Positions 48,562 through 64,000 are shown, counted from the first letter of the stretch. The stretch is 64,000 bases of DNA from an uncultured Ignavibacteriales bacterium (GCA_937858935.1 CALLZX010000305.1:8208-72207); one strand, 5' to 3'. Translations and numbers: made by a program. Notes: generated from the sequence alone by a model not told the origin.

Positions 48562-49185
48562 TTATCCAGCCCGCTTTTCCATACTACGATAGATACCAAC
48601 CACAATCCCAACTATCTTAAACGATGGATATTTTTTATCAATTACTATTGTTTTGTACTCGGGATTTTCTGAAGCTAATTCAATTTCACTACGCTTTTTA
48701 TAAAATCGTTTTACAACGGCTGCATCATTAAGTATAGCAACAACAATTTGTCCATTCTTTGGTTCAAGATTTGGGTTTACGATTACAATATCTCCGCTAA
48801 AAATGTAGGCATCTTTTAAACTATCACCTTTTACACGAAGCAGAAATGAATCTTGTGGCATTTTTGCTATTGTAGGAAGTTTGACTGTATCAATTGCATC
48901 AGGATAAATAGTTAATGGATTACCTGCTGCAACTTCTCCCAGTATTGGTCGAGGTACAAAATATTTATCTTCTAATGTAAGTTCTATTCCACGGGAAAGT
49001 TTAGGACTTTTTCTGATATACCCTTTTTTTTCAATTGCTTGAAAATGCTGTTGAACAGTCGCACGATTTTTATATCCAAAATGCTTTGCTACATCGGCAA
49101 GTGTTGGTGGAATTCCCTTCCCTTTTATTTGATCAATAAGAAAGTCTAAAATATCCTTTTGGATTGCTGTTAGCTCTTTTTGCAT
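48562..49185 (-). CDS. lexA: LexA repressor (S24 autopeptidase)
   Basis: 207 aa. wHTH 'PTLADVAKHFGYKNRATVQQHFQAIEKKGYI'. Cleavage-site region 'EVAAGNP'. Ser 'VKGDSLKDA' and Lys 'VVKRF'. Confidence 0.9.
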   Translation of the reverse strand: MQKELTAIQKDILDFLIDQIKGKGIPPTLADVAKHFGYKNRATVQQHFQAIEKKGYIRKSPKLSRGIELTLEDKYFVPRPILGEVAAGNPLTIYPDAIDTVKLPTIAKMPQDSFLLRVKGDSLKDAYIFSGDIVIVNPNLEPKNGQIVVAILNDAAVVKRFYKKRSEIELASENPEYKTIVIDKKYPSFKIVGIVVGIYRSMEKRAG

Positions 49186-49320: not shown

Positions 49321-52300
49321 TTAATACTTTGATAAAAATATCTTTTCTAAAGATTCCATCATTTTTTCTTTAAAGATTGGTTTTGAAATAAAATCATCAA
49401 ATCCGGCAGCAATAAACTTTTCCTTATCACCTGGTAGAACGTAAGCTGTTACTGCAATAATTGGAATTGAACTAAATGCAGGCATAGTTTTAATGATTTT
49501 TAAAGCATCTAGACCGTTATACTCGCCCTGTAAATTTATGTCCATCACAATAAAATCAAACTGATGGTTTAGTAAAAGAAGTTGAGCTTCTTCAAAACTG
49601 ACCGCAAACTTAACATCATTAAGTCCTTTCATCTGGACTTTAAAAAGTATCTGTGAATCGACCTGGTCCTCTATATAAAGACAGTTAAGTTTTGTTAAAT
49701 CAAGTGATTGAGATGGTTTAACATCTTGAACATCATCAGATTCAGAAGCTAATTCATCTTTTATAGCTTCCGAAAGGTTTCCATGTACATCAGTTTCATT
49801 AGAATCATAATCAATATTGCTATGCTCTTCAGTTTTTTTCTGGTTCAACATTTCATAGGTTTGTATTTCTTGCTGAATTGAATCATCTTGAATGTTCTTT
49901 TGGTCAGTAAGTTTTGAGAGTAATTCTTGCGCTACTGGTGGAACGGCTTTAAATACATCGGCTGACTCATCGATTTTAGATTCAAGAGAAACATCATTTA
50001 TAGTATCTATGTCATTGTTCGGTAATATTATTTTTTCAGAATATTCAGGAAACTCCTCTTTATCTGATTCAGGAATATCAAATTCACGGGCTCTCAAATT
50101 ATCAGATAACTGAAGTAAAGAAATTGTCTCTTGTACTGATTCAAATCTTTGTGTTTCTGAACCGGCCGTGAAAGTAATTGGAAAAATAAACCCTGTTTCA
50201 TTTCGAACTGTAGCCGAAGAGGATTTATAAAACTTTCCATCTAAATAGTGCATAAGAATTCTTGCTAAATATGTTGTTAACTTAGGCAAACCAAAATCCT
50301 TTGGATCTTTATCGTTAGCAAAAATTTGCTCCAGAACATTTGCAACATATTCTGAAGGATTGCCATACTGATCGCTGATACCAATAAGAAAGGAATCAGC
50401 ATCAACCGGAAAAGCAGAGAAATAAACTTTTTTATCCTTGCTTAATCTTGAAACAACTTTGATTAAGGACAGAATAAAGTTTTCAAATTTTTGTTTATCA
50501 GATTTAAACTTTAAGGATGAAGATATTTTGCCGTACGAAAATTGAATATCATTAATCCCCGTTATGTCTTTTATGTTGTCATCCAATTTTTCGATAACAT
50601 CGGTTATAGTAATATCTTCAACCTTTAATGGGGATTTATTTTGCATTATATCTGAATACTCAACAACAGCATTCATAGTATCCATCATCTTAATGCGGTT
50701 CTGATTAATTATTTCAGAGGCTTCTAATTGTTCTTCAGTCGGATTTTCGGTGCTGCTTATCAACTCCTGAGAAAAACCAATAATCACATTAATTGGAGTT
50801 AAAATCTCATGAAACATTCCGGAAAGAAAATTTGAATCGGGAATAATAGTTTTATGTTGAGTAACGCTTGGTTTTTCAATAATAACTTCTTTTACAACCT
50901 CTTTAATAACTTCTTTAACTATTTCTTTTGGTTCTTCTGAACTTAATTTTACTGATAATGGTTTTACTATAACTGTGAAGGAATCTATTTCGCCATCAAA
51001 ATCAAGAATTGGAGAAGCAGAAATTTCTGCATCAAAATGATTACCAAGTGAATCCTTAAATTTTGATTCTAAAACTACTGGGTCTTTAAGATGAGATTGA
51101 AAGATGGTAGTATTAACAATTCCTCGATCATCATCAGCAACAAGACTTGCAAAGGACGATTGAAGTATTTCCTCATTTGAATAACCAAGACTCTTTGTTA
51201 CATTTTGATTAATATATGTTATAAATCCGGAGGAGTCGGTACTAAAGATCATCAAATCAGATTCATTAAAAATAATCTTAAGCATCTGATGTTGTTTTTC
51301 TTTTTCAATACTGTCCGAGATATCTTTTACTATATTGAAATGTGCTTCCTTATCGTTAAACTTAAATGAAGTTTTACTTATCTCAACAAGAACATTTGAA
51401 CCGTCTTTTCTTCTGTGTCTGAATGGTTTACTGAATCTTGCTTCCGACGCTTCGTCTCCAAAGGAATCTAATAAGGTCTGAATATCTTCAGGTGCATAAA
51501 GATCTGTAAGATCCATTTGAAGGAATTCTTCACGGCTGTAACCGTATAGCTTAATAGCTGCATTGTTTACTTCAAGAAATTTTAAATTTTCTTTATCATA
51601 AACAAATATTGGCTCCGGATTTCTTTGAATTAAAATATCGAACATTGTTCCTCTATGCATTAAAATATTTTGGAGTTCGTTTTCAGAATTTTTAATTTCA
51701 TTCTGTGCTTCAATCGTTATAAAAACGTTTGATTTATTTTTTCCTAAATTTAATATTTTTACAAGTAACAATTGAAAATTAACTTGTAAAGAATCAACCG
51801 AATTTTGATTTTTTGTTATTTGAACAAATTCTTCTGTTTTATCACTCTTAACAAATGAATTGATTTGATTAACAATACTTAGTGGAAATATTTCATCAAT
51901 TATCTTATCAGTTATCTCTTTCGTCTTAAAATTAAAGAATTCATTAAATTTTTCATTTATTCCCTTTACAACTCCATCAGAAGTTATGTATGCTGAAGGC
52001 CTGGGAAAACTATTTACCAAAGCACTAAAGAATTCTTCTTCTCCCCAAAAGTTACAATAATCATACATATTATCAACAATTAGACCAACCATTACAATTA
52101 TTTTATTAAAATTGTCTACAAGTGGTATCTGAATAATGCTCTGGATTACTTCAAAATTTTTAACTTTTTTGCTAAATCCTTCTAAAATTATTTGCTGCGT
52201 ATTAAGTATAACATACTGATCCAGCATTTTATAAATTGCTTTTTGATGAGGCGGTAAAAATGTCTCATGTTTTTTGCCGGCTGCAAAAGAAGTTTCAATT

Positions 52301-52893
52301 CCTAAAATACTTGCATATGAATTATTAACCGCAATTAGTTTACTCTCAATATCTTTAATCCAGATAGGATGGTCGTAATGATCAATTAAATTTTGAACTC
52401 TTTTAAAGGATATAATTGTAAAAGGTGCCAACTTTTGTAATTCGGATATGAGTGCCTTTCCAGGATTGTCTTTATCAGATAAGAAATTTTTGACTGAACT
52501 AATTTTTATTTTACTTAAAAGATGATCTGAATTAATATTCTCTGTACTTCTAAATACCAAAATCACATTTACATTTTCATCTGCTTGGATAGGTTCTACA
52601 GCTAAATCGAATACTACACCATCTCCTGATTTTAAATTAATTAATGTGTTTTTAAAAATATTTTTTTGGAAAGCATTCAAAACAGGCCCGATAAAATCAC
52701 TTATTTCCTGAACAGTTTGTTTTTCAAAAACCTGATCTAAAGAAATATGGTAATCATCAATAGTAAATAACGCGGAAGCTTTTTGATTTGTAAAAATAAT
52801 TTCAAAAGATTCATCTAAAATTATAAGTGGATCACCATGATAATCGGCATTTCTACCTAGAATATCGAGCCACTCTTTATTTTTTATTTCCAC
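49321..52893 (-). CDS. Multi-PAS signalling protein with HisKA-like H-box, degenerate HATPase-like region, acidic linker and C-terminal receiver domain
   Basis: 1190 aa. Several PAS-like modules. H-box 'MFHEILTPINVIIGF'. The expected N/G1/G2 boxes read 'SLIKVV', 'ISDQYGN', 'DFGLPKL'. REC 'FDFIVMDINLQGEYNG...IPIIAVTAY...FDDFISKP'. Confidence 0.75.
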   Translation of the reverse strand: MEIKNKEWLDILGRNADYHGDPLIILDESFEIIFTNQKASALFTIDDYHISLDQVFEKQTVQEISDFIGPVLNAFQKNIFKNTLINLKSGDGVVFDLAVEPIQADENVNVILVFRSTENINSDHLLSKIKISSVKNFLSDKDNPGKALISELQKLAPFTIISFKRVQNLIDHYDHPIWIKDIESKLIAVNNSYASILGIETSFAAGKKHETFLPPHQKAIYKMLDQYVILNTQQIILEGFSKKVKNFEVIQSIIQIPLVDNFNKIIVMVGLIVDNMYDYCNFWGEEEFFSALVNSFPRPSAYITSDGVVKGINEKFNEFFNFKTKEITDKIIDEIFPLSIVNQINSFVKSDKTEEFVQITKNQNSVDSLQVNFQLLLVKILNLGKNKSNVFITIEAQNEIKNSENELQNILMHRGTMFDILIQRNPEPIFVYDKENLKFLEVNNAAIKLYGYSREEFLQMDLTDLYAPEDIQTLLDSFGDEASEARFSKPFRHRRKDGSNVLVEISKTSFKFNDKEAHFNIVKDISDSIEKEKQHQMLKIIFNESDLMIFSTDSSGFITYINQNVTKSLGYSNEEILQSSFASLVADDDRGIVNTTIFQSHLKDPVVLESKFKDSLGNHFDAEISASPILDFDGEIDSFTVIVKPLSVKLSSEEPKEIVKEVIKEVVKEVIIEKPSVTQHKTIIPDSNFLSGMFHEILTPINVIIGFSQELISSTENPTEEQLEASEIINQNRIKMMDTMNAVVEYSDIMQNKSPLKVEDITITDVIEKLDDNIKDITGINDIQFSYGKISSSLKFKSDKQKFENFILSLIKVVSRLSKDKKVYFSAFPVDADSFLIGISDQYGNPSEYVANVLEQIFANDKDPKDFGLPKLTTYLARILMHYLDGKFYKSSSATVRNETGFIFPITFTAGSETQRFESVQETISLLQLSDNLRAREFDIPESDKEEFPEYSEKIILPNNDIDTINDVSLESKIDESADVFKAVPPVAQELLSKLTDQKNIQDDSIQQEIQTYEMLNQKKTEEHSNIDYDSNETDVHGNLSEAIKDELASESDDVQDVKPSQSLDLTKLNCLYIEDQVDSQILFKVQMKGLNDVKFAVSFEEAQLLLLNHQFDFIVMDINLQGEYNGLDALKIIKTMPAFSSIPIIAVTAYVLPGDKEKFIAAGFDDFISKPIFKEKMMESLEKIFLSKY

Positions 52894-52911
52894 CTTTTGA
52901 AAACCACTTCG

Positions 52912-54180
52912 TTAAAATGTTGAAATTGTAACTTCATTGGAATATTCTGAATATCGATTTAAATCATATCCTCTGATTCTATATGTGTAAACATTATTAG
53001 TTTCAACATTAAAATCCAGATAAAGATTTACATCTGCATCAATTCTTCGCAAGAGAGTGTAAGAACTTAAATCGGTTTTTCTTTCTATGTCAAAATACAA
53101 AATATTATTGTCCGAACTATTCCAATTTAATTGAATAACTCTAACAGAACTATTGTATATTGCTGTAAGATTTGTTGGAGGAAGCAAAATTCCTGAAGTG
53201 ATTTTAATACTTACAGTATTACTCATTGCCGAGTCTTCATTACTGTATGCTACAACTCTGTATTGATAAGTTGAACCTCTAATTAGGCCGTTTCCGGAAT
53301 CTTTAAATGTTGTAGTATTTTTTGTCAACGCAGCAATACGATTAAAAAATCCATCTGATGAGCTTCTTTGAACAGCAAAATAATTTTCATTATCACTATT
53401 ATCTTTCCAATTCAAAAGGACATTTGATATTCCCGAAACATTTGCTGAAAGATTAGTTGGAGGTAAAATATTCCCTGATGAAATTATTCCGGCAGTATTT
53501 ATTTCACCGCTAAATTCTGAAAACCCTGAAATCTTAAATCCACGTACTTTATAAAAATAAATATTAGTCGTATCAAGGTTATTGTCATTAGTATTATTGG
53601 ATTTTCCAGTAAGTTCTTGATGTAAAAAATACTCTCCATCAAGATTTACCTTTCGCCAAAGCTCATATTTTTCAACATAACGTGAAGTATCTTTCCAACT
53701 AATATTAACTGATCCATCATTGAATTTTAGTAAAGCTAGGTTATATGGCTTGAATGGGATTCTATTATCATTCGTTACCAGCAATTCTGTTACAGTATTA
53801 CTTTTTTGCGATGTACCATCTGTATCATAATAAATCAAATACAAATTCATCTTTTGACCGATTAAAGTAGAATCAAGTTGGAAATTTATCGGCGGCGCAG
53901 TACCGTTACTATTGGGCGGGATATTTTTGACAAATGTACTATTAACATATAATTCAAGAAATTTTATAGAGTAGGGTTGTGTAATGGAATAAACAATTTC
54001 ATTATTACCTTCCATCAAAGTTCCATCAGAAGATGGTGATATGATTTGAATTTTCAAATTTGATGGGATTGAATTCTGATTTGGATCAGAACTAAGATCT
54101 GCACAAGACTGTGAAATAATTACTAAGATTACTATTAAAATCGAAAAGGTAATGTCTTTTTTTAAAAACCATTTTTTCAT
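52912..54180 (-). CDS. Lipoprotein with three fibronectin type III repeats
   Basis: 422 aa. Lipobox-like 'VIISQSCADL'. Three FN3-like units, each ending in a Y.Y+V/R..G/Y...S.FS/YS pattern ('IYFYKVRGFKISGFSEFS', 'YQYRVVAYSNEDSAMS', 'YTYRIRGYDLNRYSEYS'). Confidence 0.7.
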   Translation of the reverse strand: MKKWFLKKDITFSILIVILVIISQSCADLSSDPNQNSIPSNLKIQIISPSSDGTLMEGNNEIVYSITQPYSIKFLELYVNSTFVKNIPPNSNGTAPPINFQLDSTLIGQKMNLYLIYYDTDGTSQKSNTVTELLVTNDNRIPFKPYNLALLKFNDGSVNISWKDTSRYVEKYELWRKVNLDGEYFLHQELTGKSNNTNDNNLDTTNIYFYKVRGFKISGFSEFSGEINTAGIISSGNILPPTNLSANVSGISNVLLNWKDNSDNENYFAVQRSSSDGFFNRIAALTKNTTTFKDSGNGLIRGSTYQYRVVAYSNEDSAMSNTVSIKITSGILLPPTNLTAIYNSSVRVIQLNWNSSDNNILYFDIERKTDLSSYTLLRRIDADVNLYLDFNVETNNVYTYRIRGYDLNRYSEYSNEVTISTF

Positions 54181-54212
54181 TTTTTATCTAATCCTAATTA
54201 CAAATAATCTAT

Positions 54213-55835
54213 CTATTCAAGCGTGAAGTTAAACTTAATTTTATTCAAAGAATTCGGAAGAATTTTATCTAATTTGATTCTAATTCCGCCAGCAGTATCA
54301 TCAAAATAATATTCTAATAACGATTTATTAAGTGATATAGTTAAAGTTTTTCTGTCAATATCCTGAGCAAAGTTTAGAAAAACATTTAGATCACTAACCA
54401 ATAAAGGATTTTTATTATTTAACCATATTTCAATTTCATTATCTGATATATTTTTAATCTCACAAGTTATTCTCTCTCTAACACTCCACCATCTATTTAT
54501 CGTTGGTAGTGTAGTAAAATTAAATTTGAGTGATCTGATTTTATTAATCTTTTCCAGTAATTCATCTTCAGGATTAACTTCGCAATTAATTTTAGGATTG
54601 TAATTCAAAAAATTAATTACATTTATAGAAAATGGAAGTTCGTTAGACTTTACGAATGGAATTAATAACAAATCTTTATTATAATATTTGGGGAGTCCAG
54701 GAGCTTGTTCAGTATAAAGTATTTCAGTTATTCCGGCAGCGCTTATTAGACCTAAATCTATGTTTTCTAAAGCTTGTTCTTTGACAAGAAGTGTAGATAG
54801 TTCAACTCCATAGTCTCGATTAAAGTTTTCTATTAATTCAATTACGTTGTTAGAAGTATAATGATCAATTCCTGATAAATCAAAAATGATTTCATCAAAC
54901 GCGAATTTGGTTAAAATCTCTTTTGAAACTTCCAGATCAGAATTTACAATAAGATTAGGTCTGATCTCATTATTCTGCAAAACATCAATCAGTTCAGATT
55001 CAAGAGCATTATTGTATTGAAGCGAAACTATTACTGGAGAAGATATACTATCATAAAATACATCAATATAAATATCCGGATCTTTATCCATCCAACTTAT
55101 AGTATTCAAAACGAGTTTTTTAAATGCAGCTAAATCTTCTTTGCCTCCAATAACATCATTTAAATCAAATCCTGTAAACAGGAATTTTCCCTTTCCATTA
55201 GATCCATAAACAATTGAAGAATTTGAGGAATCATAACTACTTTTATCAAAATAAAATCCGGCTGAGGCTACTTTGTTTTCGATCAAATCACAAATTAATC
55301 CCTGGTTCTTATTTGAAATCTGCAGAATCAATTCATCATCAATATTAAAATGATTCAAATGATTTGGTAAGAGAGAATGGAAATAGCTTATATTTTCTGA
55401 TGATACAGTTTCAATATTCTTTAATCCCAAAAGTGTTTTGAGATTCTGGTATTCTATTATACTGCTTTCTTGAAACATTAATTTTGATCCAGAGCTGATA
55501 ATAGAATTTCCACTCACTAAGAATTTTTGTAGAACTTCCATCTGAACAAATGAGATGAAGTTTATAGAAGGTAAAATCAATATATCATACTCTTCATCAA
55601 TACCGGATTCAAGATCATGATCATAAATAACTGAGTAAGGGATTTGTTCTTGCATTAGAAACAATTCCCATGAAGTTATCACCTCCATAACTTTATTGGA
55701 GTTAGCATCGATATTATTTTCGGTTAATTCCGAATATAGAATTGCGATTCTTGGCTGAGCATAGATCAGACCCTGAGAAATTAAAACTCCGAATAGAATG
55801 ATTAGAATTGAAAATATTTTAAAATGATGATACAA
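54213..55835 (-). CDS. Exported protein, paralogue of the upstream 632-aa protein (GATase1-like N-domain + NodB-like degenerate domain)
   Basis: 540 aa with a signal peptide. 'RIAILYSELTEN...YDILILPS...LQKFLVSGNSIISSGS' and 'GKGKFLFTGFDLNDVIGGKED...NTISWM' align by eye with 55858-57756. Confidence 0.5.
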   Translation of the reverse strand: MYHHFKIFSILIILFGVLISQGLIYAQPRIAILYSELTENNIDANSNKVMEVITSWELFLMQEQIPYSVIYDHDLESGIDEEYDILILPSINFISFVQMEVLQKFLVSGNSIISSGSKLMFQESSIIEYQNLKTLLGLKNIETVSSENISYFHSLLPNHLNHFNIDDELILQISNKNQGLICDLIENKVASAGFYFDKSSYDSSNSSIVYGSNGKGKFLFTGFDLNDVIGGKEDLAAFKKLVLNTISWMDKDPDIYIDVFYDSISSPVIVSLQYNNALESELIDVLQNNEIRPNLIVNSDLEVSKEILTKFAFDEIIFDLSGIDHYTSNNVIELIENFNRDYGVELSTLLVKEQALENIDLGLISAAGITEILYTEQAPGLPKYYNKDLLLIPFVKSNELPFSINVINFLNYNPKINCEVNPEDELLEKINKIRSLKFNFTTLPTINRWWSVRERITCEIKNISDNEIEIWLNNKNPLLVSDLNVFLNFAQDIDRKTLTISLNKSLLEYYFDDTAGGIRIKLDKILPNSLNKIKFNFTLE

Positions 55836-55857
55836 TTTTACTTTATTAGTTTTATAG

Positions 55858-57756
55858 TTAGAAGTTTACCTGATCGTAATCGATATAATATTGCCTGGAT
55901 TCACCCGGTTTCAAATCATCTATATACAAATAAACCATTTGCGAGCCTGCTGTATGTTTTACACTTGCAGTTTTAGTTCCAATAATTTCTGAACCAATTG
56001 TGATGTTTTGTGCATAATCATTTAGATCAAGATCAATAACTAAATTATTAATAGACTCGATTCCAGGATTTGAAACTTTTAATGCAACACGAGTTTTGCC
56101 TCTTCGATCAGCTTTGATTTCAATATAATCTCTTTTTTCATACCACTTTTGAATTTCGGTTGCAGTTGCAATCCAGAATTTTTTCTTTTTTAAATCTTTA
56201 AGCACATCTCTTAATACATTTGCGTAATCACTTCTGCATTGATACTCTGTGTGAAGTTTTAAAATATACATACCACCTTCAAAAAGAACACGATCTAAAT
56301 CTTCCTGATAAGTGTAGAACTGAAATTCAGGTAATGTCAATCCAAAATCTCTAATAATTTCATAATCATCACGAGCTGTCTTTGTCATCGTAACAATTCG
56401 CTTATCTCCGCGAATTATCGTTTTAGGGACAGAACGATCTGTGAGTGAATCAGTAAGTACATATTTATAGTTGGAATTAATAACTGCATTTAAAGTATTC
56501 TGATCAAACAAACCATAATAAGGTAAAAAGCCTGAAACACTGCTTGATGAAATTTTTTCAAGTTTTTCTTTTGCAGAATTTAGCTTTTGTAGTTGTTCTG
56601 CATACGAATTTAGTTTATTAAACTTATCATTGATTGAGGTCAAATAACCAATATCAACTAAGGCAGCTATTTCTCCATAAGATGAAATTTTTCTAATCAG
56701 CTCTTTATTATTCTCCGCGATTGTCGGATCAACAAAAAAAGTTGCAGAAATTCCTTCGTTTTTCATAATCGGTAAAATATTATTGATGTTATTGACATCA
56801 TTTGTGAGCACCGGAGCCACAATAGCTGCAGCTTCATATCCTGTTGGCCAATCTCGTACATATGCAATAGGAAAATACATAAGCCATTTTATGGAGTTAT
56901 TAAAAAGCCTTTCAAAATAAATGTAATCTTCCTGCACACCGATTATGGAATTCAATTCAAATCCCATCCACATAAATCTACCTTTACCAAAATTTCCATA
57001 AGCAATTCCAGCAGATTTTTTAATTTCTTCACGAACCAATCCGTCATCCATTCGGTAATTGTACCAGAAGCTAACTTGAGTTGTTCTTGGATCAAGTACT
57101 TCAACCGCCATTGGTCTATCCCATGTAGCTATCTTCAAAGGAAATCCGGTTGGAATATTTGCAGTAATCGGCAAACTACCGCAGATAGTATGAATTTTTG
57201 AAAACTCATCAGGTTTTAATTCGTGAGAGAATTGCACACCAAAAACCTGGTTAATAAATTCCCATCCACGCCATTTGCCATCGTTAGAATATGAACCGAT
57301 TCCACCTGTAGCAAAAACACTTCCACCATTCTCCAGATATTTTTTTAATTGCAAGGCTTCTTTTTCACTTAAAGATTTTGTACCTGGTAATACAATCAAC
57401 TTGTATTTTTTATAATCACCATTTTCAATTTTTTGATCTGAGATTATTTCATACTTAAGATTTAGATTATCAAGAAATTTTTTCCAGGTGGAAATATTAT
57501 CATTCAACCAGGTGCTTCCAACGGGTAAAGTATTTTCAGTGTACTTGGAATAAAGAATTGCAACTTCTGGCTCTTTACCGAATAAAAAGTCTTCAATAAT
57601 ATTAGAATTGGGAAGAATTTCTGAAGTGTCAAATCGGCCATAGATGCCGCGAAGGATAAAATAATAAATAAGAATCGCTGAAATGATTATTACGATGCCT
57701 GAAAAAAAGAAAAAAAATTGATTTATCCTTATACCAAATAATTTCTTTACCGCCAC
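55858..57756 (-). CDS. Membrane-anchored protein with GATase1-like domain and polysaccharide-deacetylase (NodB)-like domain lacking the canonical metal/catalytic motifs
   Basis: 632 aa. TM 'FFFFFSGIVIIISAILIYYFIL'. 'EVAILYSKYTEN...YKLIVLPGTKSL...LKKYLENGGSVFATGG'. NodB-like 'AAAIVAPVLTNDVN...GISATFFVDP...YGEIAALVDIGY'. Confidence 0.55.
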   Translation of the reverse strand: MAVKKLFGIRINQFFFFFSGIVIIISAILIYYFILRGIYGRFDTSEILPNSNIIEDFLFGKEPEVAILYSKYTENTLPVGSTWLNDNISTWKKFLDNLNLKYEIISDQKIENGDYKKYKLIVLPGTKSLSEKEALQLKKYLENGGSVFATGGIGSYSNDGKWRGWEFINQVFGVQFSHELKPDEFSKIHTICGSLPITANIPTGFPLKIATWDRPMAVEVLDPRTTQVSFWYNYRMDDGLVREEIKKSAGIAYGNFGKGRFMWMGFELNSIIGVQEDYIYFERLFNNSIKWLMYFPIAYVRDWPTGYEAAAIVAPVLTNDVNNINNILPIMKNEGISATFFVDPTIAENNKELIRKISSYGEIAALVDIGYLTSINDKFNKLNSYAEQLQKLNSAKEKLEKISSSSVSGFLPYYGLFDQNTLNAVINSNYKYVLTDSLTDRSVPKTIIRGDKRIVTMTKTARDDYEIIRDFGLTLPEFQFYTYQEDLDRVLFEGGMYILKLHTEYQCRSDYANVLRDVLKDLKKKKFWIATATEIQKWYEKRDYIEIKADRRGKTRVALKVSNPGIESINNLVIDLDLNDYAQNITIGSEIIGTKTASVKHTAGSQMVYLYIDDLKPGESRQYYIDYDQVNF

Positions 57757-58199
57757 TTCACTTCCCCTGAATTTCTATCTTCCTGAGTAGGTATATACCC
57801 ATCAGAAGTGTATTTCAGGAATTTATTTTCATCACTAAATCGTTCTTGCGGTCTTACACGAACCTTTTGCTTTTCTACTTTTTCTTCATCGACTTTATAT
57901 CCGCGCGGTTCAGGTGTATATTTTGATTGTGATGGTTGGCGCTGCTTAGTGTATTCCTCTCTAGTAATTCCCGGCTCAACAGTTTTTATCTGTCCCCGTT
58001 CTTCCAAAGTTGAATCTTTTGTATAAATTGCTTCAGATGGAACTACTAGTTCACCTTGCACAGATGCAGGTTTGGTTTGATATGCATATTGTGATTTTCC
58101 TTCACGAACCTTGTAAAGGATATACGCCCCGATTGCCAATATGAACGTGCATATTGTTGCGACAAGAATAATAGTAGATAGTATCGGGATAAGTTCCAT
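57747..58199 (-). CDS. Small single-pass membrane protein with charged, low-complexity tail
   Basis: 150 aa. TM 'LIPILSTIILVATICTFILAIGAYILY', then a K/E/R/Q/P-rich tail. Lies 8 nt after the GT2 gene and overlaps the next gene by 10 nt. Confidence 0.5.
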   Translation of the reverse strand: MELIPILSTIILVATICTFILAIGAYILYKVREGKSQYAYQTKPASVQGELVVPSEAIYTKDSTLEERGQIKTVEPGITREEYTKQRQPSQSKYTPEPRGYKVDEEKVEKQKVRVRPQERFSDENKFLKYTSDGYIPTQEDRNSGEVKWR

Positions 58200-58207
58200 T
58201 TAATTTC

Positions 58208-59632
58208 CTAATTAGTATTAACAGCAATATTATCTGATCTTGTTGAACTAATTCGATCCAATTTTCCCCAAGTCATTCTGATTCCAAGAAACTCTTCAAT
58301 AGTCGACATGGTTTTACAAATATCAATAATCAAAATAAAAAACATTCTGTAAATGATTGCATACCATATCAATCTAAATTCTTCTTTTTCGACCGCAACA
58401 CAATAAAGTGCTGTGACAAGATCCAATATTGCTAAACCCGCCCACCAAAAGAATATTAAATGTGAAAATCCAAAAAATAAAGCTGCAAAAATAAAAAATG
58501 CATTGGCTGCAATATTCATCGTTGGCCAAATTAGGGCTTCATAAGACATCATCCACAAAATAAATGTTTGTCCAAAATTTACTGTAGGATTCAACATTCT
58601 TTTTTTATGCTTTCTGATCGATTGAAGTATTCCTCTAGTCCATCTGTATCTCTGTTTAAGAAGCTGCTGCAATGTTACGGGAGCTTCTGTATAAGAAATC
58701 GATTTGGGTTCATAATAAATTTTCCAACCATTTGCTAAAACTTTTAAGGTTAAATCAGCATCTTCTGCATAAGTATCACTTGAGTAATATCCAGCTTGTT
58801 CAATTGCTTTTCTTCTAAAAATACCTATTGGTCCTGGAATAATATTTACAAGTTTAAAATAGCTCTGAGCACTGCGAGCCATATTTAATCCTTCAATATA
58901 TTCAAGAGCTTGAAGATCTGTAAAAAACCTTTTTCTGTTTAGAACTTTTACATTACCTGCAACGGCACCAATTTTAGGATTTTTAAAATGTCTAACTGCA
59001 ACTCTGACTGATTCAGGTGAAAGCTGAGAGTCTCCGTCCATACAAAGAACAAAATCAGACTTAGAATAATAAATACCAGAATTTAAAGCTCGTGCTTTTC
59101 CCAAATTTGGCTGATTTATTAATGATATTTTTACCTTACCATATAACCCATCCTGGAATCCAACCATAGATTCAGCTACTTGTTTAGTATCGTCGGTTGA
59201 ACCATCATTTACAACAATAATTTCATAATTCTGGTAATCAAGCTTAAGCAAAGACAAAATTGATTTTCTAATAATTTTACCTTCGTTAAAGACCGGAACT
59301 ATAATAGATATAAAAGGAGAATACCCATTAGTTTCTGAGAAAGTGTATTCATTTAAATATAAATATGCTGCAACCAAAATGGCGAAGTATCTTACAAGAA
59401 GGATGAAAAGAAAAATAACAAGAGCTATAATTGTCGAATACTCAAATAGTGAACTGTACGACAAAATTGTGTAAGGTAAAGTATAGACTATAACTAAAAT
59501 CAGTAATAGTGAAATTATACCACTTACGAGTATCCTTCGTAAATATTTTTGCTCTAGATTTTCTCCTTTTTTTTCATCTTCCCGGCTTGAAATAGTAATA
59601 ATAACACGATCGACAAGCTGATTTATTTTCAT
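58208..59632 (-). CDS. Membrane-embedded processive family-2 glycosyltransferase (PgaC/IcaA/NodC-like synthase)
   Basis: 474 aa. Two N-terminal and about four C-terminal TM segments. 'ISIIVPVFNEG', 'IIVVNDGSTDDT', 'LGKARALNSG', 'VLCMDGDSQL', 'YAEDADLTLK', 'QRYRWTRG' (D, D, D, QxxRW). Confidence 0.85.
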   Translation of the reverse strand: MKINQLVDRVIITISSREDEKKGENLEQKYLRRILVSGIISLLLILVIVYTLPYTILSYSSLFEYSTIIALVIFLFILLVRYFAILVAAYLYLNEYTFSETNGYSPFISIIVPVFNEGKIIRKSILSLLKLDYQNYEIIVVNDGSTDDTKQVAESMVGFQDGLYGKVKISLINQPNLGKARALNSGIYYSKSDFVLCMDGDSQLSPESVRVAVRHFKNPKIGAVAGNVKVLNRKRFFTDLQALEYIEGLNMARSAQSYFKLVNIIPGPIGIFRRKAIEQAGYYSSDTYAEDADLTLKVLANGWKIYYEPKSISYTEAPVTLQQLLKQRYRWTRGILQSIRKHKKRMLNPTVNFGQTFILWMMSYEALIWPTMNIAANAFFIFAALFFGFSHLIFFWWAGLAILDLVTALYCVAVEKEEFRLIWYAIIYRMFFILIIDICKTMSTIEEFLGIRMTWGKLDRISSTRSDNIAVNTN

Positions 59633-59815
59633 TTATCCGGATAATGGTTTGCCCTAATTTTTCAATAATAATGCCATTAGAAGGATTTTAATTAACATTT
59701 TTTTTACTCATAAATCCCCTTTATGCAATACCAATATTGGACTTTAATTTAATCTGTATCATAATCAAACAAGCGAGAATGTTTAGATTTGGCTAAAAAA
59801 TTGGTAAGTAAACGT

Positions 59816-62662
59816 TTACAATCCCCAGATCAAACTAGCTTGTATAGAAGTTGAACGATAACCAGTGTTTGATCTAAAAGAACTTCCCGTCGTGAATCGT
59901 GTTTGCAAAAGCAGATTTTCAATAATTTCATAGTCTATTGAAGCGTAAAACTCGGAAAGTATAAAATCATTTTGTGGTATCAAACCAATTTTACCACCAA
60001 TGTTAAAATTAAAAGTATCATCATAGTAAAGATTCCAATTAGCCCAGATGGAGTGTGATTCAAAATTCTTTGGACTCCAATACAGCTGCGTTTCATCTTT
60101 TAATGAATAGAAATAATACTCATAACCAGCAGTAAGATCAGATTCAAAAACCTTTCCTAGTCTTGCAACAAATAAGTTACCGGAGTTATTATCAGAAACA
60201 TCTAAATATCCATATTTTCCTGAAACAACCAAATTATTTTTAAACTTGTATTCACCATTTAACCCAAAATGAAAAGCATTCAATCTTGTGTTAACTAAGA
60301 ATGGAGAGTAAAGTATAAATGCAGCATCAGAATAATTTAAGAAAGCTGTAACACTAAAAATACTTTTTTTCTGTGTAGTTAGTGATAACTCAATAATATT
60401 TTCTTTTTGGTCGTTCACAAAATATGTTTGTCCAAAACTTCCAGATCCTGAAAATGTTTCATTAAATTTTACATACGCTGACCCTTTAATTTGATTAAAC
60501 CTTAATTCATTATCAGCCGAGGAAAGTTTACCACGTGAACCAGAAAGACCAAGAGCTAGAAAGTCTGTTGCACCTAAGTCAAATCCAACCCCAAAGTTTG
60601 AATAGCTAAAATCAGTGTTATCAGTGAAATAAGATGCTCTGGGGATCAATTGTATATAAGTTGGAAACTTATCAAAAGAAAATTTATCGCTTCCACCAAT
60701 CCAGCCTAACCGTGTTTTAAGTATATGGGAATTAGGAGATTTAAGGAAAAGATTCTTATAAGTGATTTTTGCATTTTGAACTTGACCATTTTGCAGGTAG
60801 GCGTCTCCGAGGAGTAATTCAGTCTCAATATCGTTTGGATTTTTTTGATTTAGTCTTCTAAATTCCTTTAAAGCTAAAGACGAGTCACTATTCCATAAAT
60901 AAACCTTTGCTCTTTGTTTTTCTATCTCATAATCGTCAGTTGACTTTAATAAATCATCATAGATTTTTATCGATTTATCCAAATTAGAATTTGCAATATG
61001 AACATTTGCCAGCTCAAGTTTAACTGCATTGTTATCCGGATTGTTAATTAGATACTGATTGAATGATTTTATAGCAGAATTATATTCTTTTCTGTATGAA
61101 AATAATCTTGCATCTTCTAAAATTTTATTGGATGTATCTAATTCATTTTGATCTTTTGCATTCTCAAAAGTCCTTTGCAGTAAAATAAATTTCTGAGAAG
61201 AACTATCAACAATTGAAATTTCATTCATTAATTCTTCTGCATCAGAGATACTATTATTTCTTATATAAAGATTTGCCAATCCAAACATAGCCTCTGTGTT
61301 TTTAGAATCGATAGCCAATACTTTTTGAAAAAGTGATTGGCTATAAACTAAATCTCTATCTAACCAATAATTTATTTGAGCAGCTAATAATAAATAATCC
61401 TTATTATTCGGTGCTGACTTTAGAAGTTCGCTAGCATTATCGGAGGCTTCACAAAGATTATTTTGCCACATTAAAATCTGAGCTAATTTATAACGTACTT
61501 CTTGATCATTTGGGTCTTTTGATAAGTAACTGTTGTAAAGATTTACAGCTATACTGTAATCATTATTGTAAGAATAATATTTAGCTAACTCTAATAATGC
61601 ATCTTTATTAAATGGTTCTTTATTTAATCGCTCTTCATAAAATCTAATGCGATCTGCATAGTAGGATTTTCTTAAAGTAATTGCCTTAAACCATAAATCT
61701 TTAAATCTATCCTGGTCAGAAAATTTAGGAGATAAAATCTGCAGTTGTTCATAAGCTTCTTCATATCGATTTACAGTGATTAATTCCTCAATCAATTTAA
61801 ATCTACTATCATCATCAGCCTTATTTTTTTTTAGAACAAGATATAATCTATCAATTTCATATTGCTTGGCGGCTGGTTGCATTCCATAATTAAATTTAGA
61901 CGTTGTATCGTTAATCGAATAAATGTAACCTTTACCTTTTGCCAGATCCAATCCATCCATTGCCTCTTTAAAGTAGGGTCGTATTTCTAGAGATTTAGTG
62001 AATGCATCAACGGCAATTTTATTTTTACCAAGCCATAGCGTAAAATAACCATATCTGGACAACAATCTGTGATCGTCCGGAAATCGCTCAGTATAGTTCT
62101 TAAGAATCGGTTCACCTTTAGAAATATGATTATTCTTAGCTAATATTTCTGAGTATCTGATGATCTCATCAGGAGAGGCTTTTTCTTTTTCAAGATAGAT
62201 ATCATACCATATTTCAGCTTCATTCCAGTTTCCTAAATTCTTATAGCACTTTCCTATTTCAAGATAATTTTTTGCAATAATAGGATTGATTGCAATTTCT
62301 CTCTTGTGTCCTTCAATTTTATTGTAAAGGATTTTATACCAATCAGAGGTTGCTCTATTTAAATTTGATGAAATTTCATCATCTTCTGGTTTTATTTTTT
62401 TTGCTGTGCGAAAATCATAAACAGCATACTCATAATTACCTCTTTTTTCATAACAGATGCCGCGTAAATTAAATCCATCCGCCGAATTTGGATTTGCAGA
62501 TACATATTTATTTAAAATGTCAATTGCCTCACCGTAACGTCCAGAACTAATTAGTTGTATAGCTTCTGTTTTAAAATTTGAAGAATAATTATTTTGAGGT
62601 AATATAGATATGCTAAAAAAAGTAAGATTCAGAATGAGCAATTGATAGAAAAATAATTTCAT
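59816..62662 (-). CDS. TPR-repeat protein with C-terminal outer-membrane beta-barrel (PgaA/BcsC/PelB-like export porin)
   Basis: 948 aa with a signal peptide. About 600 aa of TPR-like repeats ('YGEAIDILNKYVSANPNSADGFNLRGICYEKRGNYEYAVYDF...'). The last ~300 aa show alternating beta-strand patterning rich in aromatics and end in '...SIQASLIWGL'. Confidence 0.75.
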   Translation of the reverse strand: MKLFFYQLLILNLTFFSISILPQNNYSSNFKTEAIQLISSGRYGEAIDILNKYVSANPNSADGFNLRGICYEKRGNYEYAVYDFRTAKKIKPEDDEISSNLNRATSDWYKILYNKIEGHKREIAINPIIAKNYLEIGKCYKNLGNWNEAEIWYDIYLEKEKASPDEIIRYSEILAKNNHISKGEPILKNYTERFPDDHRLLSRYGYFTLWLGKNKIAVDAFTKSLEIRPYFKEAMDGLDLAKGKGYIYSINDTTSKFNYGMQPAAKQYEIDRLYLVLKKNKADDDSRFKLIEELITVNRYEEAYEQLQILSPKFSDQDRFKDLWFKAITLRKSYYADRIRFYEERLNKEPFNKDALLELAKYYSYNNDYSIAVNLYNSYLSKDPNDQEVRYKLAQILMWQNNLCEASDNASELLKSAPNNKDYLLLAAQINYWLDRDLVYSQSLFQKVLAIDSKNTEAMFGLANLYIRNNSISDAEELMNEISIVDSSSQKFILLQRTFENAKDQNELDTSNKILEDARLFSYRKEYNSAIKSFNQYLINNPDNNAVKLELANVHIANSNLDKSIKIYDDLLKSTDDYEIEKQRAKVYLWNSDSSLALKEFRRLNQKNPNDIETELLLGDAYLQNGQVQNAKITYKNLFLKSPNSHILKTRLGWIGGSDKFSFDKFPTYIQLIPRASYFTDNTDFSYSNFGVGFDLGATDFLALGLSGSRGKLSSADNELRFNQIKGSAYVKFNETFSGSGSFGQTYFVNDQKENIIELSLTTQKKSIFSVTAFLNYSDAAFILYSPFLVNTRLNAFHFGLNGEYKFKNNLVVSGKYGYLDVSDNNSGNLFVARLGKVFESDLTAGYEYYFYSLKDETQLYWSPKNFESHSIWANWNLYYDDTFNFNIGGKIGLIPQNDFILSEFYASIDYEIIENLLLQTRFTTGSSFRSNTGYRSTSIQASLIWGL

Positions 62663-62677
62663 CTTCTATAGTCAATT

Positions 62678-63883
62678 CTATCTCTGATTTAATTGGGTTT
62701 TGACAGTTTTGTTATCAAATTCTCTAAAGACATCTTCAGCACTGTTCATCGAGTCATTTACTTTTAACATTAAATAAGCCACATTAGTAGATCCACTACC
62801 ATTTAAAGTCTGATGAACTTTTGAAATGAAATCATCAATCAATTTATCATCAGATTTTGTGATAAGAATATAAATTTTATCATCAATTGTACATATCTTA
62901 TCTTTTTTATGTGCTGCTACTTTAACAGAATAACTTAATTGATCGAATGAAATTCTAGATTGTGACTGACTTGCTGGATTAATTCTAATCGATAAAATTG
63001 TGAACATTTGGCCGGTCGTTTTATACAGTGCAATTTGATTATTAACAATCAATTTAAAATCATTTATACTGTAAATATTAGGTACTAAATATTCAGGAGT
63101 ATTTAAAGCATTTGTCTTATTTGGAATCAGCTCAGTTATTTCGGGCAATATGTTTTCTTTAGTTAAGCGTTTTGTGATTTTAAAATCAGTTGTTATACCT
63201 TTATAAGGTTCTATGAAATAGTTTGCTTTGAATTTCCCTTCTGTATGCCCAATATTTGGAGTAATATCGATAATGCCTGGTTGCTGCTCTGCACTGTCTT
63301 CGGCTTTATGAAGTTGAATAATTCCAGTTGCGAAAGAATTTAAAACATTAAATATCATTTTTGAAGATTGTGCTGCAGGCTCTCTTAAAATCAATAAACT
63401 AGTTATCCCTAAATCTTCAATTGATTCAATCATCGAACCAAATGCATCTCTAAGGCTGTTTAGATTTTCATACTCAACATAAGGGGTCAATTCATCAAAA
63501 ATAATTCGAGTAGGATGATACTGATTAATAACAGAAATAATATCGCTGAGATAATCACTTAAAAATTCATCTCTACTTTTAAATTCTGTAGTTTCAGTCG
63601 GTTGAGCAACACGCACAACTATAATTGTATTCTGATTAATATAGTTTTCAAGATCAATATCAATGGAAGCGGCATGAATCATCAAATCTTTAGGGCGAGA
63701 GTTTGTGAAATACAGGCAAACTTCTTTGTTTTTTGCAGCTTCTACCGCATATTGAAGACTTAAAAGAGTTTTGCCAGACTTTTTTTCACCAACTAATAAA
63801 TATGTCCCGCCGTGATAAAATCCTCCCCAGGCGCTATCAACGATTGGAATACCGGAATGGAATAATTGCACGCTTTTTTTCAT
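62678..63883 (-). CDS. KaiC/RecA-superfamily ATPase with C-terminal extension resembling a degenerate GGDEF domain
   Basis: 401 aa. 'GIPIVDSAWGGFYHGGTYLLVGEKKSGKTLLSLQYAVEAA' (Walker A GEKKSGKT). Walker B 'RIIFDELT'. C-terminal 'FTILSIRINPAS...DKICTIDDKIYILITKSDDKLIDDFISKV' mimics the GGDEF-domain layout without the GG[DE]EF residues. Confidence 0.6.
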   Translation of the reverse strand: MKKSVQLFHSGIPIVDSAWGGFYHGGTYLLVGEKKSGKTLLSLQYAVEAAKNKEVCLYFTNSRPKDLMIHAASIDIDLENYINQNTIIVVRVAQPTETTEFKSRDEFLSDYLSDIISVINQYHPTRIIFDELTPYVEYENLNSLRDAFGSMIESIEDLGITSLLILREPAAQSSKMIFNVLNSFATGIIQLHKAEDSAEQQPGIIDITPNIGHTEGKFKANYFIEPYKGITTDFKITKRLTKENILPEITELIPNKTNALNTPEYLVPNIYSINDFKLIVNNQIALYKTTGQMFTILSIRINPASQSQSRISFDQLSYSVKVAAHKKDKICTIDDKIYILITKSDDKLIDDFISKVHQTLNGSGSTNVAYLMLKVNDSMNSAEDVFREFDNKTVKTQLNQR

Positions 63884-64000
63884 AGTTTAATTTTTTAACA
63901 ATTTTACCAATAATTATACCGTTAGTATTGTTCGTTTATATTAAAAAAATGAATAAAAGCGATATTTTTTTGGACTAAACAGAGACAAAAAAAGTGAGTT

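Follow-up and report, generated by a model that had tools for sequence, protein, structure and literature searches.

The locus described here occupies positions 49321-63883 of a 64,000-nucleotide stretch of DNA from an Ignavibacteriales bacterium (the whole stretch is called the window below) and comprises eight open reading frames (ORFs), all of which lie on the minus strand. It likely encodes a synthase-dependent exopolysaccharide (EPS) synthesis and export system of a two-membrane envelope, which forms a distinct family across the Ignavibacteria and recurs in a KSB1 genome. The eight genes, in the order of transcription, and the terminator that closes the locus are as follows (aa, amino acids; nt, nucleotides).

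62678-63883, minus strand: gene 1, KaiC-like protein, 401 aa
59816-62662, minus strand: gene 2, TPR protein, 948 aa
58208-59632, minus strand: gene 3, GT2 synthase, 474 aa
57747-58199, minus strand: gene 4, p150, 150 aa
55858-57756, minus strand: gene 5, GN1, 632 aa
54213-55835, minus strand: gene 6, GN2, 540 aa
52912-54180, minus strand: gene 7, FN3 lipoprotein-like protein, 422 aa
49321-52893, minus strand: gene 8, PAS/HisKA/receiver (PAS/REC) protein, 1190 aa
49269-49299, minus strand: intrinsic terminator at the 3′ end of the locus, with a 14-bp stem, a 3-nt loop and a T-run

Calculated from these coordinates, the junctions from gene 1 to gene 8 are gaps of 15, 183 and 8 nt, an overlap of 10 nt, and gaps of 22, 32 and 18 nt. 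A preliminary description of this DNA had placed eight minus-strand ORFs at exactly these positions and had noted the 10-nt overlap, the short gaps and the single 183-nt gap, all of which is borne out by the coordinates. The profile hidden Markov model searches that it had proposed as a check, run against Pfam and NCBIfam, reproduce every one of its domain calls. It had also called the locus terminator-bounded, which is true for the 3′ end only. There the terminator precedes the lexA gene (LexA_DNA_bind plus Peptidase_S24; 48562-49185, minus strand), which lies directly downstream of the locus. At the 5′ end the window edge is only 117 nt upstream of the start of gene 1, and relatives have a gene for a glycoside hydrolase of family 9 (GH9) beyond this point. 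Judged from these relatives, the locus is cut by the window and contains at least nine genes, with the GH9 gene lying off the window.

Conservation of the neighbourhood in related genomes, which had been set beforehand as a test, was found well beyond the source organism. A scan with the GN1 alignment as query and one genome per species yielded 70 species-level loci that carry the gene set, nearly all of them from Ignavibacteria, including metagenome-assembled genomes labelled Ignavibacterium album, in addition to one KSB1 genome. The near-identical relative L015 (JADJIH010000002.1) shares 93-99% identity with the window across all eight proteins. Components were counted in the 46 species loci that have full 10-kb flanks; GN1 served as the query and is therefore present by construction.

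GT2: 46/46 full-flank loci
GN1 (query): 46/46 full-flank loci
p150: 45/46 full-flank loci
PAS/REC protein: 45/46 full-flank loci
KaiC-like protein: 44/46 full-flank loci
TPR protein: 44/46 full-flank loci
Two GN-family ORFs: 39/46 full-flank loci
GH9: 28/46 full-flank loci, with none within 10 kb in the other 18/46
FN3 protein: 28/46 full-flank loci, and also in KSB1

The KSB1 locus (L072) keeps the KaiC-like, TPR, GT2, p150, GN1 and FN3 genes, with GH9 inverted downstream and the PAS/REC gene absent. Four further distant relatives, L075-L078, were located via the rare C-terminal domain of gene 1. In L076, L077 and L078, a gene encoding CelD_N and GH9 domains lies directly upstream of the KaiC-like gene, and all other upstream genes differ. 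In L075, which has a different gene order, the KaiC-like gene adjoins that of a 969-aa TPR protein, and L078 has no TPR gene. Altogether, the core is kept in KSB1 and in L075-L078 despite the difference of the other flanking genes.

The synthase, gene 3, matches Glycos_transf_2 of Pfam with an E of 6e-34. Its best NCBIfam model is TIGR03937 (PgaC_IcaA), with an E of 1.5e-59 and 202 bits against a cut-off of 422, followed by the next model at 106 bits; against E. coli PgaC, 347 aa align with 31% identity (E 1e-50). Besides the QRYRW motif, it has TM-like (transmembrane-like) segments at aa 34-86 and 371-439, which flank the GT domain, in agreement with the PgaC/IcaA-like GT2 with TM bundles on both sides of the preliminary description. 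The nearest solved structures are those of hyaluronan and cellulose synthases, which together with the PgaC match group the protein with processive synthases rather than with non-processive GT2 enzymes. Other matches are to Chitin_synth_2, to NodC (102 bits) and to cellulose synthase models (52-56 bits against cut-offs of 699-992), and no PilZ match was found in Pfam. By sequence, gene 3 thus encodes a processive membrane synthase of the PgaC lineage, a PgaC homologue rather than a demonstrated equivalog. The GT2 of L076 (14328-15731) is named ‘poly-beta-1,6-N-acetyl-D-glucosamine synthase [Candidatus Brocadiaceae bacterium]’ in NCBI nr, a taxon label that probably arose through faulty binning in data from an anammox community.

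Directly after the synthase comes p150, in which one TM-like segment and the orthologue alignment bear out the 150-aa single-pass protein reported earlier. The protein is bitopic and an obligatory partner in the system. Its N-terminal TM helix is almost invariant even in KSB1, the linker that follows varies, and the C-terminus ends in a conserved motif, KF[LM]KYTSEGY...KWR; no family match was found in Pfam or NCBIfam. Basic residues follow the TM helix, which suggests that the C-terminal tail is cytoplasmic. The C-terminal motif (aa 126-150) is rich in Tyr, Ser and Thr, and may be a docking or phosphorylation site. As the stop codon of p150 overlaps the start of GN1 by 10 nt, coupled translation of the two is suggested. 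PgaD was tried as a counterpart of p150 and rejected, because the pairwise BLASTP match (E 0.005) runs over a low-complexity juxtamembrane stretch and the family profile gives an hhalign probability of 0.4%.

The TPR protein has an N-terminal signal peptide and matches many TPR families of Pfam at about aa 30-650, which substantiates the TPR part of the ‘TPR + β-barrel’ protein proposed before. In its C-terminal domain (about aa 665-948, 285 residues; 59819-60670), the β-moment is larger than the helical one, and the composition is rich in Gly, Phe and Ser. The C-termini of the orthologues end in [YF]W-x-[FL], which resembles a β-signal. Against the PgaA and BcsC models of NCBIfam, the protein gives sub-threshold matches that are far below the cut-off and cover the TPR part only, and the C-terminal profile aligned to PgaA has an hhalign E of 0.058 and a probability of 1%. 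The C-terminal region is likely a membrane β-barrel, and the protein is predicted to be an outer-membrane export porin. In two distant variants, a gene for an SGNH/GDSL-like protein of 395-399 aa (a sub-threshold Pfam match) lies between the TPR and GT2 genes (L077:14458-15657, L075:4048-5235); it may encode an accessory for acyl modification of the polymer.

GN1 is a periplasmic protein with an N-terminal membrane anchor (a TM-like segment at aa 17-35), an α/β domain at aa 84-157 that matches GH42M (GATase1-like), ABC_transp_aux and GIFT, a NodB-like domain at aa 322-433 that matches PF01522 (Polysacc_deac_1; 37.2 bits, cut-off 23.1), and a further C-terminal stretch without an assigned fold. 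The combination of GATase1-like and NodB-like domains claimed earlier for the 632-aa protein is thereby upheld. PgdA and PdaA are found among its profile matches in the PDB. Alignment to Bacillus PgdA (5o6y) and to 4l1g showed that TFDD is replaced by VLT/SxD (here VLTND), HSxxH by LTSIN and RPPYG by LPYYG, so that, judged against PgdA, neither the catalytic base nor any of the three metal ligands of CE4 enzymes is retained. GN2 is a secreted protein with a signal peptide and without a Pfam match, which is related to the NodB family via GN1 only; with a BLASTP E of 2e-26 and 25% identity to GN1, it is the more degenerate of two tandem paralogues, as had been proposed for the 632-aa and 540-aa proteins. 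HxxxH together with RPP occurs in none of 69 GN1 orthologues and in 5/63 second paralogues, and GN2 of the window is outside those five. For this genome, therefore, NodB-like domains that lack the Asp/His motifs are confirmed.

HGDxH, RPP and a late His are kept only in the second GN paralogues of five deep lineages: L054 (11905-13653), L067 (start 11826), L068 (start 11808), L069 (11867-13606) and L071 (start 8079). Hence an active CE4 deacetylase was probably ancestral and was probably lost in the lineage of the window, which left two pseudo-deacetylases here. The anchoring and the layout of α/β plus sugar-binding domains suggest that GN1 and GN2 play a role like that of BcsB and, by this analogy, might bind or guide the chain. 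PgaB was rejected as a counterpart of GN1, with a profile probability of 0.1%, the CE4 residues gone and no hydrolase domain found in Pfam.

These comparisons bear on the alternative that the locus is a diverged pgaABCD operon, in which GT2 equals PgaC, p150 PgaD, GN1/GN2 PgaB and the TPR protein PgaA, the product is partly deacetylated poly-β-1,6-N-acetyl-D-glucosamine (PNAG), and the extra genes are incidental. PgaC_IcaA is by far the best NCBIfam model of the synthase (202 against 106 bits), which is 31% identical with PgaC of E. coli, the next gene encodes a small membrane protein, proteins with PF01522 and with TPRs, the latter weakly matching PgaA, are present, one orthologous GT2 is named poly-β-1,6-GlcNAc synthase by NCBI, and a plausible active CE4 paralogue persists in the five deep lineages. 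We nevertheless regard a PNAG operon as unlikely. The synthase falls under the equivalog cut-off of 422 and the gene order is different; p150 has one TM helix instead of two and an hhalign probability of 0.4% to PgaD; GN1 is unrelated to PgaB, lacks a GH153-like domain and has neither catalytic nor metal residues; and the linked GH9 belongs to a β-1,4-glycanase family. Moreover, the protein of gene 1, far from being incidental, occurs in 44/46 loci and in distant contexts, and has the same promoter type as the synthase module.

The lipoprotein-like protein of gene 7 contains two fn3 stretches in addition to an FN3-type CRLF2-D2 match, and its lipoprotein-like signal peptide ends in ...ISQSC, in keeping with the triple-FN3 lipoprotein reported before. 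The GH9 gene, which encodes a secreted protein with CelD_N and GH9 domains, lies beyond the window end (>64000) and was characterised from relatives (L015:2039-3682, L001:8172-9815, L076:8163-9836, L077:8219-9871, L078:8221-9843 and, on the minus strand, L072:13181-14851). The protein has a signal peptide, the catalytic DAGD/NEx motifs are present in 37/39 orthologues, and the nearest solved structures are endo-β-1,4-glucanases. We count it as a component of the system because it adjoins the KaiC-like gene in L076-L078, where the other flanks differ. No consensus terminator was found between the GH9 and KaiC-like genes of L015. Beside the GH9 gene of the KSB1 locus, there is a gene of the chitinase family GH18 (L072:14954-16348), whose product bears a sorting domain for type IX secretion.

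As to the linkage of the polymer, the PgaC-like synthase argues for β-1,6-GlcNAc, whereas the conserved GH9 and the GH18 of KSB1 argue for a β-1,4 glycan. A cellulose-like or chitin/chitosan-like β-1,4 polymer would bring the system nearer to Bcs in function, with GN1/GN2 corresponding to BcsB, GH9 to BcsZ, the TPR protein to BcsC and gene 1 to BcsE; this is possible, though we consider it somewhat unlikely. It would agree with the linkage of GH9 in independent contexts, with its intact catalytic motifs and endo-β-1,4-glucanase relatives, with the matches of GT2 to Chitin_synth_2 and NodC, and with GH18 beside the KSB1 locus. In addition, a non-catalytic NodB fold could bind the chain, and the layout of gene 1 parallels that of BcsE (PMC7439463). 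However, GT2 scores 202 bits with PgaC against 56 with cellulose synthase and 102 with NodC, there is no PilZ and no homology to BcsB or BcsE, GH9 is not found within 10 kb in 18/46 loci, and the GH18 is perhaps an unrelated neighbour.

GH9, the NodB-like proteins, the FN3 lipoprotein, an outer-membrane protein and the sensor protein could also be parts of a catabolic polysaccharide-utilisation cluster. Such a function is most improbable, because conservation is highest for a PgaC homologue, the multi-TM GT2 with its QRYRW motif, the locus has no SusC/SusD or transporter genes, the NodB-like proteins are devoid of catalytic residues, and a TPR protein with a β-rich C-terminus has the layout of known exporters. 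We therefore retain the reading of a biosynthetic system and turn to the proteins and sites that may control it.

Gene 1 has the following architecture.

62678-63883, minus strand: gene 1, cytoplasmic; KaiC-type P-loop domain at about aa 10-230, disordered linker at about aa 193-267, GGDEF-fold domain at aa 270-401 (62681-63076)

The N-terminal domain is a single KaiC domain (PF06745, E 3e-30; aa 10-198 in Pfam), and its top matches in the PDB, whether searched by sequence or by fold, are KaiC structures. Across 40 sequences, neither Walker A (G32/G37-K38-T39) nor Walker B (D130-E131) varies. Compared to circadian KaiC, gene 1 has no tandem CI-CII arrangement and gives 34-63 bits with the KaiC equivalogs of NCBIfam against cut-offs of 408-546, and no kaiB-like neighbour is seen on the locus maps. 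The KaiC-like P-loop ATPase that the preliminary description had named as first gene is thus upheld by PF06745, but in relatives the GH9 gene adjoins it upstream, and the GGDEF-fold domain had been left undescribed.

The C-terminal domain has no sequence match in the PDB or in Pfam, including PF00990, for the window protein; PF00990 is matched by 1/17 family members, with an E of 0.019. As a fold search with full-length gene 1 gave KaiC matches only, which masked the C-terminal domain, this domain was modelled alone with AF2 (AlphaFold2), giving a pLDDT of 86.2 and a pTM of 0.81. The top 22 matches of the model in a Foldseek search of the PDB are all GGDEF domains, with E values from 2e-5 to 1e-3 and TMq from 0.51 to 0.71, and PelD (4dmz) is among the structural matches with a TMq of 0.62. 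The position of the GG(D/E)EF hairpin reads I-D-D-K-I, is variable across the family and shows no GGDEF motif. The position of the I-site reads H-K-K-D (a KKDK patch) in the window protein and x-[KRN]-[KRS]-[DE]-K in the family, without a conserved Arg at -3 and without RxxD. According to the model, the C-terminal domain adopts a GGDEF fold, one that is dead as a cyclase.

This domain is rare, with 37 cluster representatives among 1.84 billion representative proteins. A KaiC-type N-terminal domain was present in 9/9 members of 400-450 aa that were scanned with Pfam, from which we take the KaiC plus GGDEF-fold architecture to be common to the family. Every sampled context of the C-terminal domain holds TPR, GT2 or GH9 genes of the system. 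One weak match (E 9e-5), the 1389-aa protein P0274 (L079:6777-10946), lies in an archaeal-type context of ribosomal protein genes and was set aside as probably unrelated. Immediately upstream of the gene 1 orthologue in L044, at 2350-3717, one extra gene encodes a receiver alone (141 aa) and another a KaiC domain alone (245 aa), and L064 has a receiver-only gene (131 aa) at 3254-3649; these extra genes hint at a signalling link between KaiC-like and receiver proteins.

The protein of gene 8 is soluble and has an acidic linker; it matches PAS families, HisKA (E 7e-7) and Response_reg (E 2e-14). Its H-box, MFHEILTPIN, aligns to the H-boxes of histidine kinases. By contrast, no HATPase_c match was found in the window protein or its mapped orthologues, whereas an unrelated kinase in L001 does match, and the N-box Asn is replaced, with NLIVNAIRYS of HprS aligned to SLIKVVSRLS. 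The receiver keeps the ...FIVMD..., ...AVT... and ...SKP... positions, as read directly from the sequence. The multi-PAS protein with an H-box, a degenerate ATP-binding domain and a receiver, as depicted earlier, is thereby corroborated.

Two leaders of the locus, that of gene 1 and the 183-nt gap between the TPR and GT2 genes, carry promoter-like and other conserved elements, and a regulator of the matching type is encoded outside the locus.

63907-63921, minus strand: P1, sigma-54-type (-24/-12-like) element CGGTATAATTATTGG, 38 nt before the start codon of the KaiC-like gene
59662-59676, minus strand: P2, sigma-54-type (-24/-12-like) element TGGCATTATTATTGA, ending 29 nt before the start codon of the GT2 gene
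59755-59772, minus strand: conserved block TTGTTTGATTATGATACA, between the TPR and GT2 genes; candidate site for a regulator or activator
59731-59740, no strand assigned: perfect palindrome CCAATATTGG, between the TPR and GT2 genes; candidate site for a regulator or activator
43783-45138, plus strand: NtrC-type sigma-54 activator outside the locus (Sigma54_activat E 2e-72, Response_reg E 4e-30, HTH_8 E 2.5e-9)

The TPR-GT2 gap is not a neutral spacer, as it contains three blocks that are near-fully conserved across 13 species within otherwise variable sequence. The relaxed pattern [TC]GG[CT]A[CT]-N5-TTGN, for which about 0.015 matches are expected per 265-nt leader, has exactly two matches on both strands of the 64-kb window, namely P1 and P2, and both leaders preserve TGGCA and TTG at the GG-N10-G spacing. 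A P1-type element is present in 52/61 loci, including the distant L076-L078, at 38-49 nt (in a few at 12-33 nt) upstream of the start of the KaiC-like ORF. TGGCAY-N5-TTGM has a single match in the window, which is P2. The strict pattern TGGCA[CT]-N5-TTGN was found in 53/73 loci, including L076 and L077, mostly at about -45 to -56 from the start of the GT2 ORF; L057 and L058, which have no KaiC-like or TPR gene nearby, carry a P2-type element at -111/-116. Of the only 63 matches to the strict pattern in all fetched loci (about 1.46 Mb, both strands), 53 are these pre-GT2 sites. The scan that placed the P1-type elements before the KaiC-like gene gave 0/38 upstream of GH9, 0/62 of TPR, 0/44 of FN3 and 1/56 of PAS/REC genes. 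In a few loci, such as L026, the strict pattern is also matched at 200-600 nt before the PAS/REC gene.

The block TTGTTTGATTATGATACA is identical at all but one position in 13 species and has a single exact match in the window; its core, TTGAT-N4-AT[AC][CA]A, is found in 21/73 loci at about -136 from the GT2 start, within the closer clade. The palindrome CCAATATTGG, with one match in the window against 0.12 expected, likewise belongs to the closer clade, where it occurs in 25/73 loci, mostly at about -107 from the GT2 start and in four at about -240. A scan with Rfam gave chance-level matches only in the locus and none in the GH9/KaiC leader of L001, and showed no riboswitch; a sigma-70 scan gave no more matches than in shuffled sequence.

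The NtrC-type activator gene is about 4 kb from the locus, and similar ORFs are found in an equivalent place in 15 further Ignavibacteria loci. In KSB1, the locus is flanked by a gene for a protein with CHASE2 and Sigma54_activat domains (L072:16352-18736). We tentatively regard the NtrC-type protein as a candidate activator of P1 and P2. On the basis of these sequence patterns, the genes probably form two co-regulated, sigma-54-dependent modules, KaiC-like plus TPR and GT2 through PAS/REC, with GH9 as a separate adjacent unit. The earlier proposal of co-transcription accordingly holds insofar as a co-regulated set is probable, but the set is probably headed by two promoters rather than being one simple transcript. 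Among the other neighbours, a gene for a DUF72 protein follows that of LexA (46724-47614, minus strand), and most mapped Ignavibacteria loci are followed downstream by a 207-aa ORF at the place that LexA takes here.

Several observations weigh against the reading of a sigma-54-controlled synthesis and export system. At both promoter-like elements, the canonical C at -12 is replaced by A, G or T (A in P2), and P1 contains TATAAT, such that a sigma-70-type element may be read there instead. The C-terminal region of the TPR protein has no significant match to PgaA or BcsC by hhalign, nor to the PDB by sequence, and it matches OMP_b-brl of Pfam only at a sub-threshold E of 0.045-0.84; the barrel is thus a call from the β-signal-like terminus, composition, amphipathic periodicity and these sub-threshold matches. 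In gene 1, the catalytic Glu pair of KaiC aligns to N61-S62, so that the protein may bind ATP without hydrolysing it as KaiC does, and, with RxxD missing, binding of a second messenger is conjectural. Furthermore, much of the conservation in Ignavibacteria is shared synteny, as the LexA, SNF and FA_hydroxylase neighbours are also conserved; since it extends to unrelated neighbours such as LexA, the independent contexts of KSB1 and L075-L078 carry more weight. Finally, L056-L058 have the GT2, p150, GN1, FN3 and PAS/REC genes without a KaiC-like or TPR gene within 8-10 kb upstream, which, together with KSB1 without PAS/REC, indicates that the KaiC-like, TPR and PAS/REC parts are separable.

Taken to its end, this separability would mean that the locus is composed of two or three functionally unrelated units kept together by inherited synteny, namely a signalling pair of KaiC-like and TPR proteins, a glycan module with GT2 and a PAS sensor acting alone. 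The 183-nt gap with its own promoter-like element, the absence of the KaiC-like and TPR genes from L056-L058, of TPR from L078 and of PAS/REC from KSB1, and the equally conserved flanking LexA, SNF and FA_hydroxylase genes all accord with such an assembly. We hold it to be improbable, however. The gene 1 family is narrow (37 representatives) and in the sampled contexts always accompanies TPR, GT2 or GH9 of the system; the leaders of both modules share a rare motif in its only two occurrences in the window; and a TPR protein with a signal peptide and a β-rich C-terminus has no obvious role without polymer export.

For the single EPS system that we favour, we propose the following mechanism. A sigma-54 enhancer-binding protein, for which the nearby NtrC-type regulator is a candidate, would switch on both modules. 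The GT2 synthase, stabilised by the TM helix of p150, would polymerise a β-linked hexose or HexNAc homopolymer and thread the chain across the inner membrane. In the periplasm, the anchored GN1, together with GN2 and the FN3 lipoprotein, would bind and guide the chain without deacetylation, similar to BcsB, catalysis like that of PgaB being unlikely. GH9 would trim or release the chain, and the TPR/β-barrel protein would export it. On the cytoplasmic face of the synthase and p150, the KaiC-GGDEF protein of gene 1 might act as a post-translational, ATP-dependent and possibly nucleotide-sensing switch, analogous to BcsE and PelD.

A further-reaching proposal, which we consider rather doubtful, is that this KaiC-GGDEF protein represents a new class of post-translational regulators of processive polysaccharide synthases, an ATP-competent counterpart and possible precursor of BcsE. 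It would form a RecA/KaiC-like oligomer beneath GT2 and p150 and couple ATP binding or autophosphorylation, and perhaps a messenger bound at KKDK, to the initiation or translocation of the chain, with KYTSEGY of p150 as the docking or phosphorylation site and the PAS-HisKA-REC protein, which lacks an ATP lid, as the partner.

Synthase-dependent EPS systems, including those for cellulose, PNAG, Pel and alginate, are models for how bacteria build biofilm matrices, and to our knowledge nearly all mechanistic insight into them comes from Proteobacteria and Firmicutes. Ignavibacteria are abundant in wastewater, anammox and sediment communities. The present locus would be a coherent, phylum-wide Ignavibacteria variant, in which the synthase-exporter core is kept and the accessory and control layers are replaced: a KaiC-GGDEF protein stands in the place of BcsE or PelD, non-catalytic NodB folds in that of active deacetylases, accompanied by GH9, a kinase-like sensor without an ATP lid and two apparent sigma-54-type promoters. 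If this is true, the locus offers a natural comparison for finding out which parts of such machines are essential. It could also show how degenerate GGDEF regulators originated and how an enzyme turned into a polymer-handling pseudo-enzyme, as the five deep lineages keep the motifs, and it could account for the matrix that Ignavibacteria form in engineered biofilms and granules.

Compared to the pga/ica systems, the locus shares a GT2 homologous to PgaC, a small membrane protein after the synthase, a NodB-family protein, and a TPR protein with a probable C-terminal outer-membrane domain, which follows the logic of PgaA. They differ in gene order, in p150 with one TM helix against two in PgaD, and in the linked hydrolase, which is GH9 here. 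Instead of CE4 catalytic and metal residues and a GH153 domain, GN1 and GN2 present a GATase1/GIFT-like domain. Moreover, the locus adds the KaiC-GGDEF protein, the FN3 lipoprotein, the PAS-HisKA-REC protein and the sigma-54-type elements.

With the Bcs system of E. coli, the locus has in common an inner-membrane processive GT2, an anchored periplasmic guide, a periplasmic endoglycanase, a TPR plus β-barrel exporter and a cytoplasmic regulator, whereas it has no PilZ on the synthase, no BcsB homologue, and GH9 rather than GH8. BcsE consists of a degenerate RecA/KaiC-like fold followed by degenerate REC and GGDEF domains (PMC7439463), and gene 1 shares this layout of a KaiC-type domain with a degenerate GGDEF domain. 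Nevertheless, Walker A and B are invariant in gene 1 but lost in the N-terminal domain of BcsE, and gene 1 has neither the degenerate REC domain nor RxxD. Homology of gene 1 to BcsE was rejected at the level of sequence profiles, as the hhalign probability against E. coli BcsE is 0.15% when the whole protein is compared and 0.12% for its C-terminal domain alone.

PelD is likewise a cytoplasmic regulator of a synthase-dependent EPS built on a catalytically dead GGDEF fold. However, it is membrane-anchored, has a GAF domain and binds c-di-GMP via RxxD, whereas gene 1 is soluble and combines a KaiC-type P-loop domain with KKDK; the Pel system also uses a GT4 (PelF) in contrast to the GT2 of the locus. 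The single-domain KaiC-like ATPases, such as archaeal ArlH/FlaH and PH0186, resemble gene 1 in having one KaiC-type domain of the RecA superfamily with Walker A, as reflected in the NCBIfam and PDB matches; gene 1 differs in being bacterial, in its fusion to a GGDEF fold and in belonging to a polysaccharide locus, without a KaiA/KaiB or archaellum context.

NfrAB and other EPS systems of the TPR-porin plus GT2 type are similar in pairing a TPR and outer-membrane protein with a GT2 and in their nucleotide-linked regulation. NfrB has a C-terminal MshEN domain for c-di-GMP, and NfrC is an epimerase. Neither the MshEN domain nor the epimerase is present in the locus, and the NfrA model, whose cut-off is 1223 bits, is matched with only 30.

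No description of such a cluster came up in literature searches on KaiC together with synthase-dependent EPS, on Ignavibacterium EPS or on GH9 with TPR and GT2, and the text of a 2020 census of EPS operons contains no mention of Ignavibacteria and no such cluster. The claim of the preliminary description that the accessory parts do not follow the pga, bcs or pel blueprints is in line with the comparisons of GN1 with PgaB, p150 with PgaD and gene 1 with BcsE, all of which were negative. Altogether, the locus shares the working logic of the Pga and Bcs machines without belonging to either: it combines a known synthase-exporter core with parts of its own, of which the KaiC-GGDEF protein, the pseudo-deacetylase pair and the paired sigma-54-type elements are the newest.

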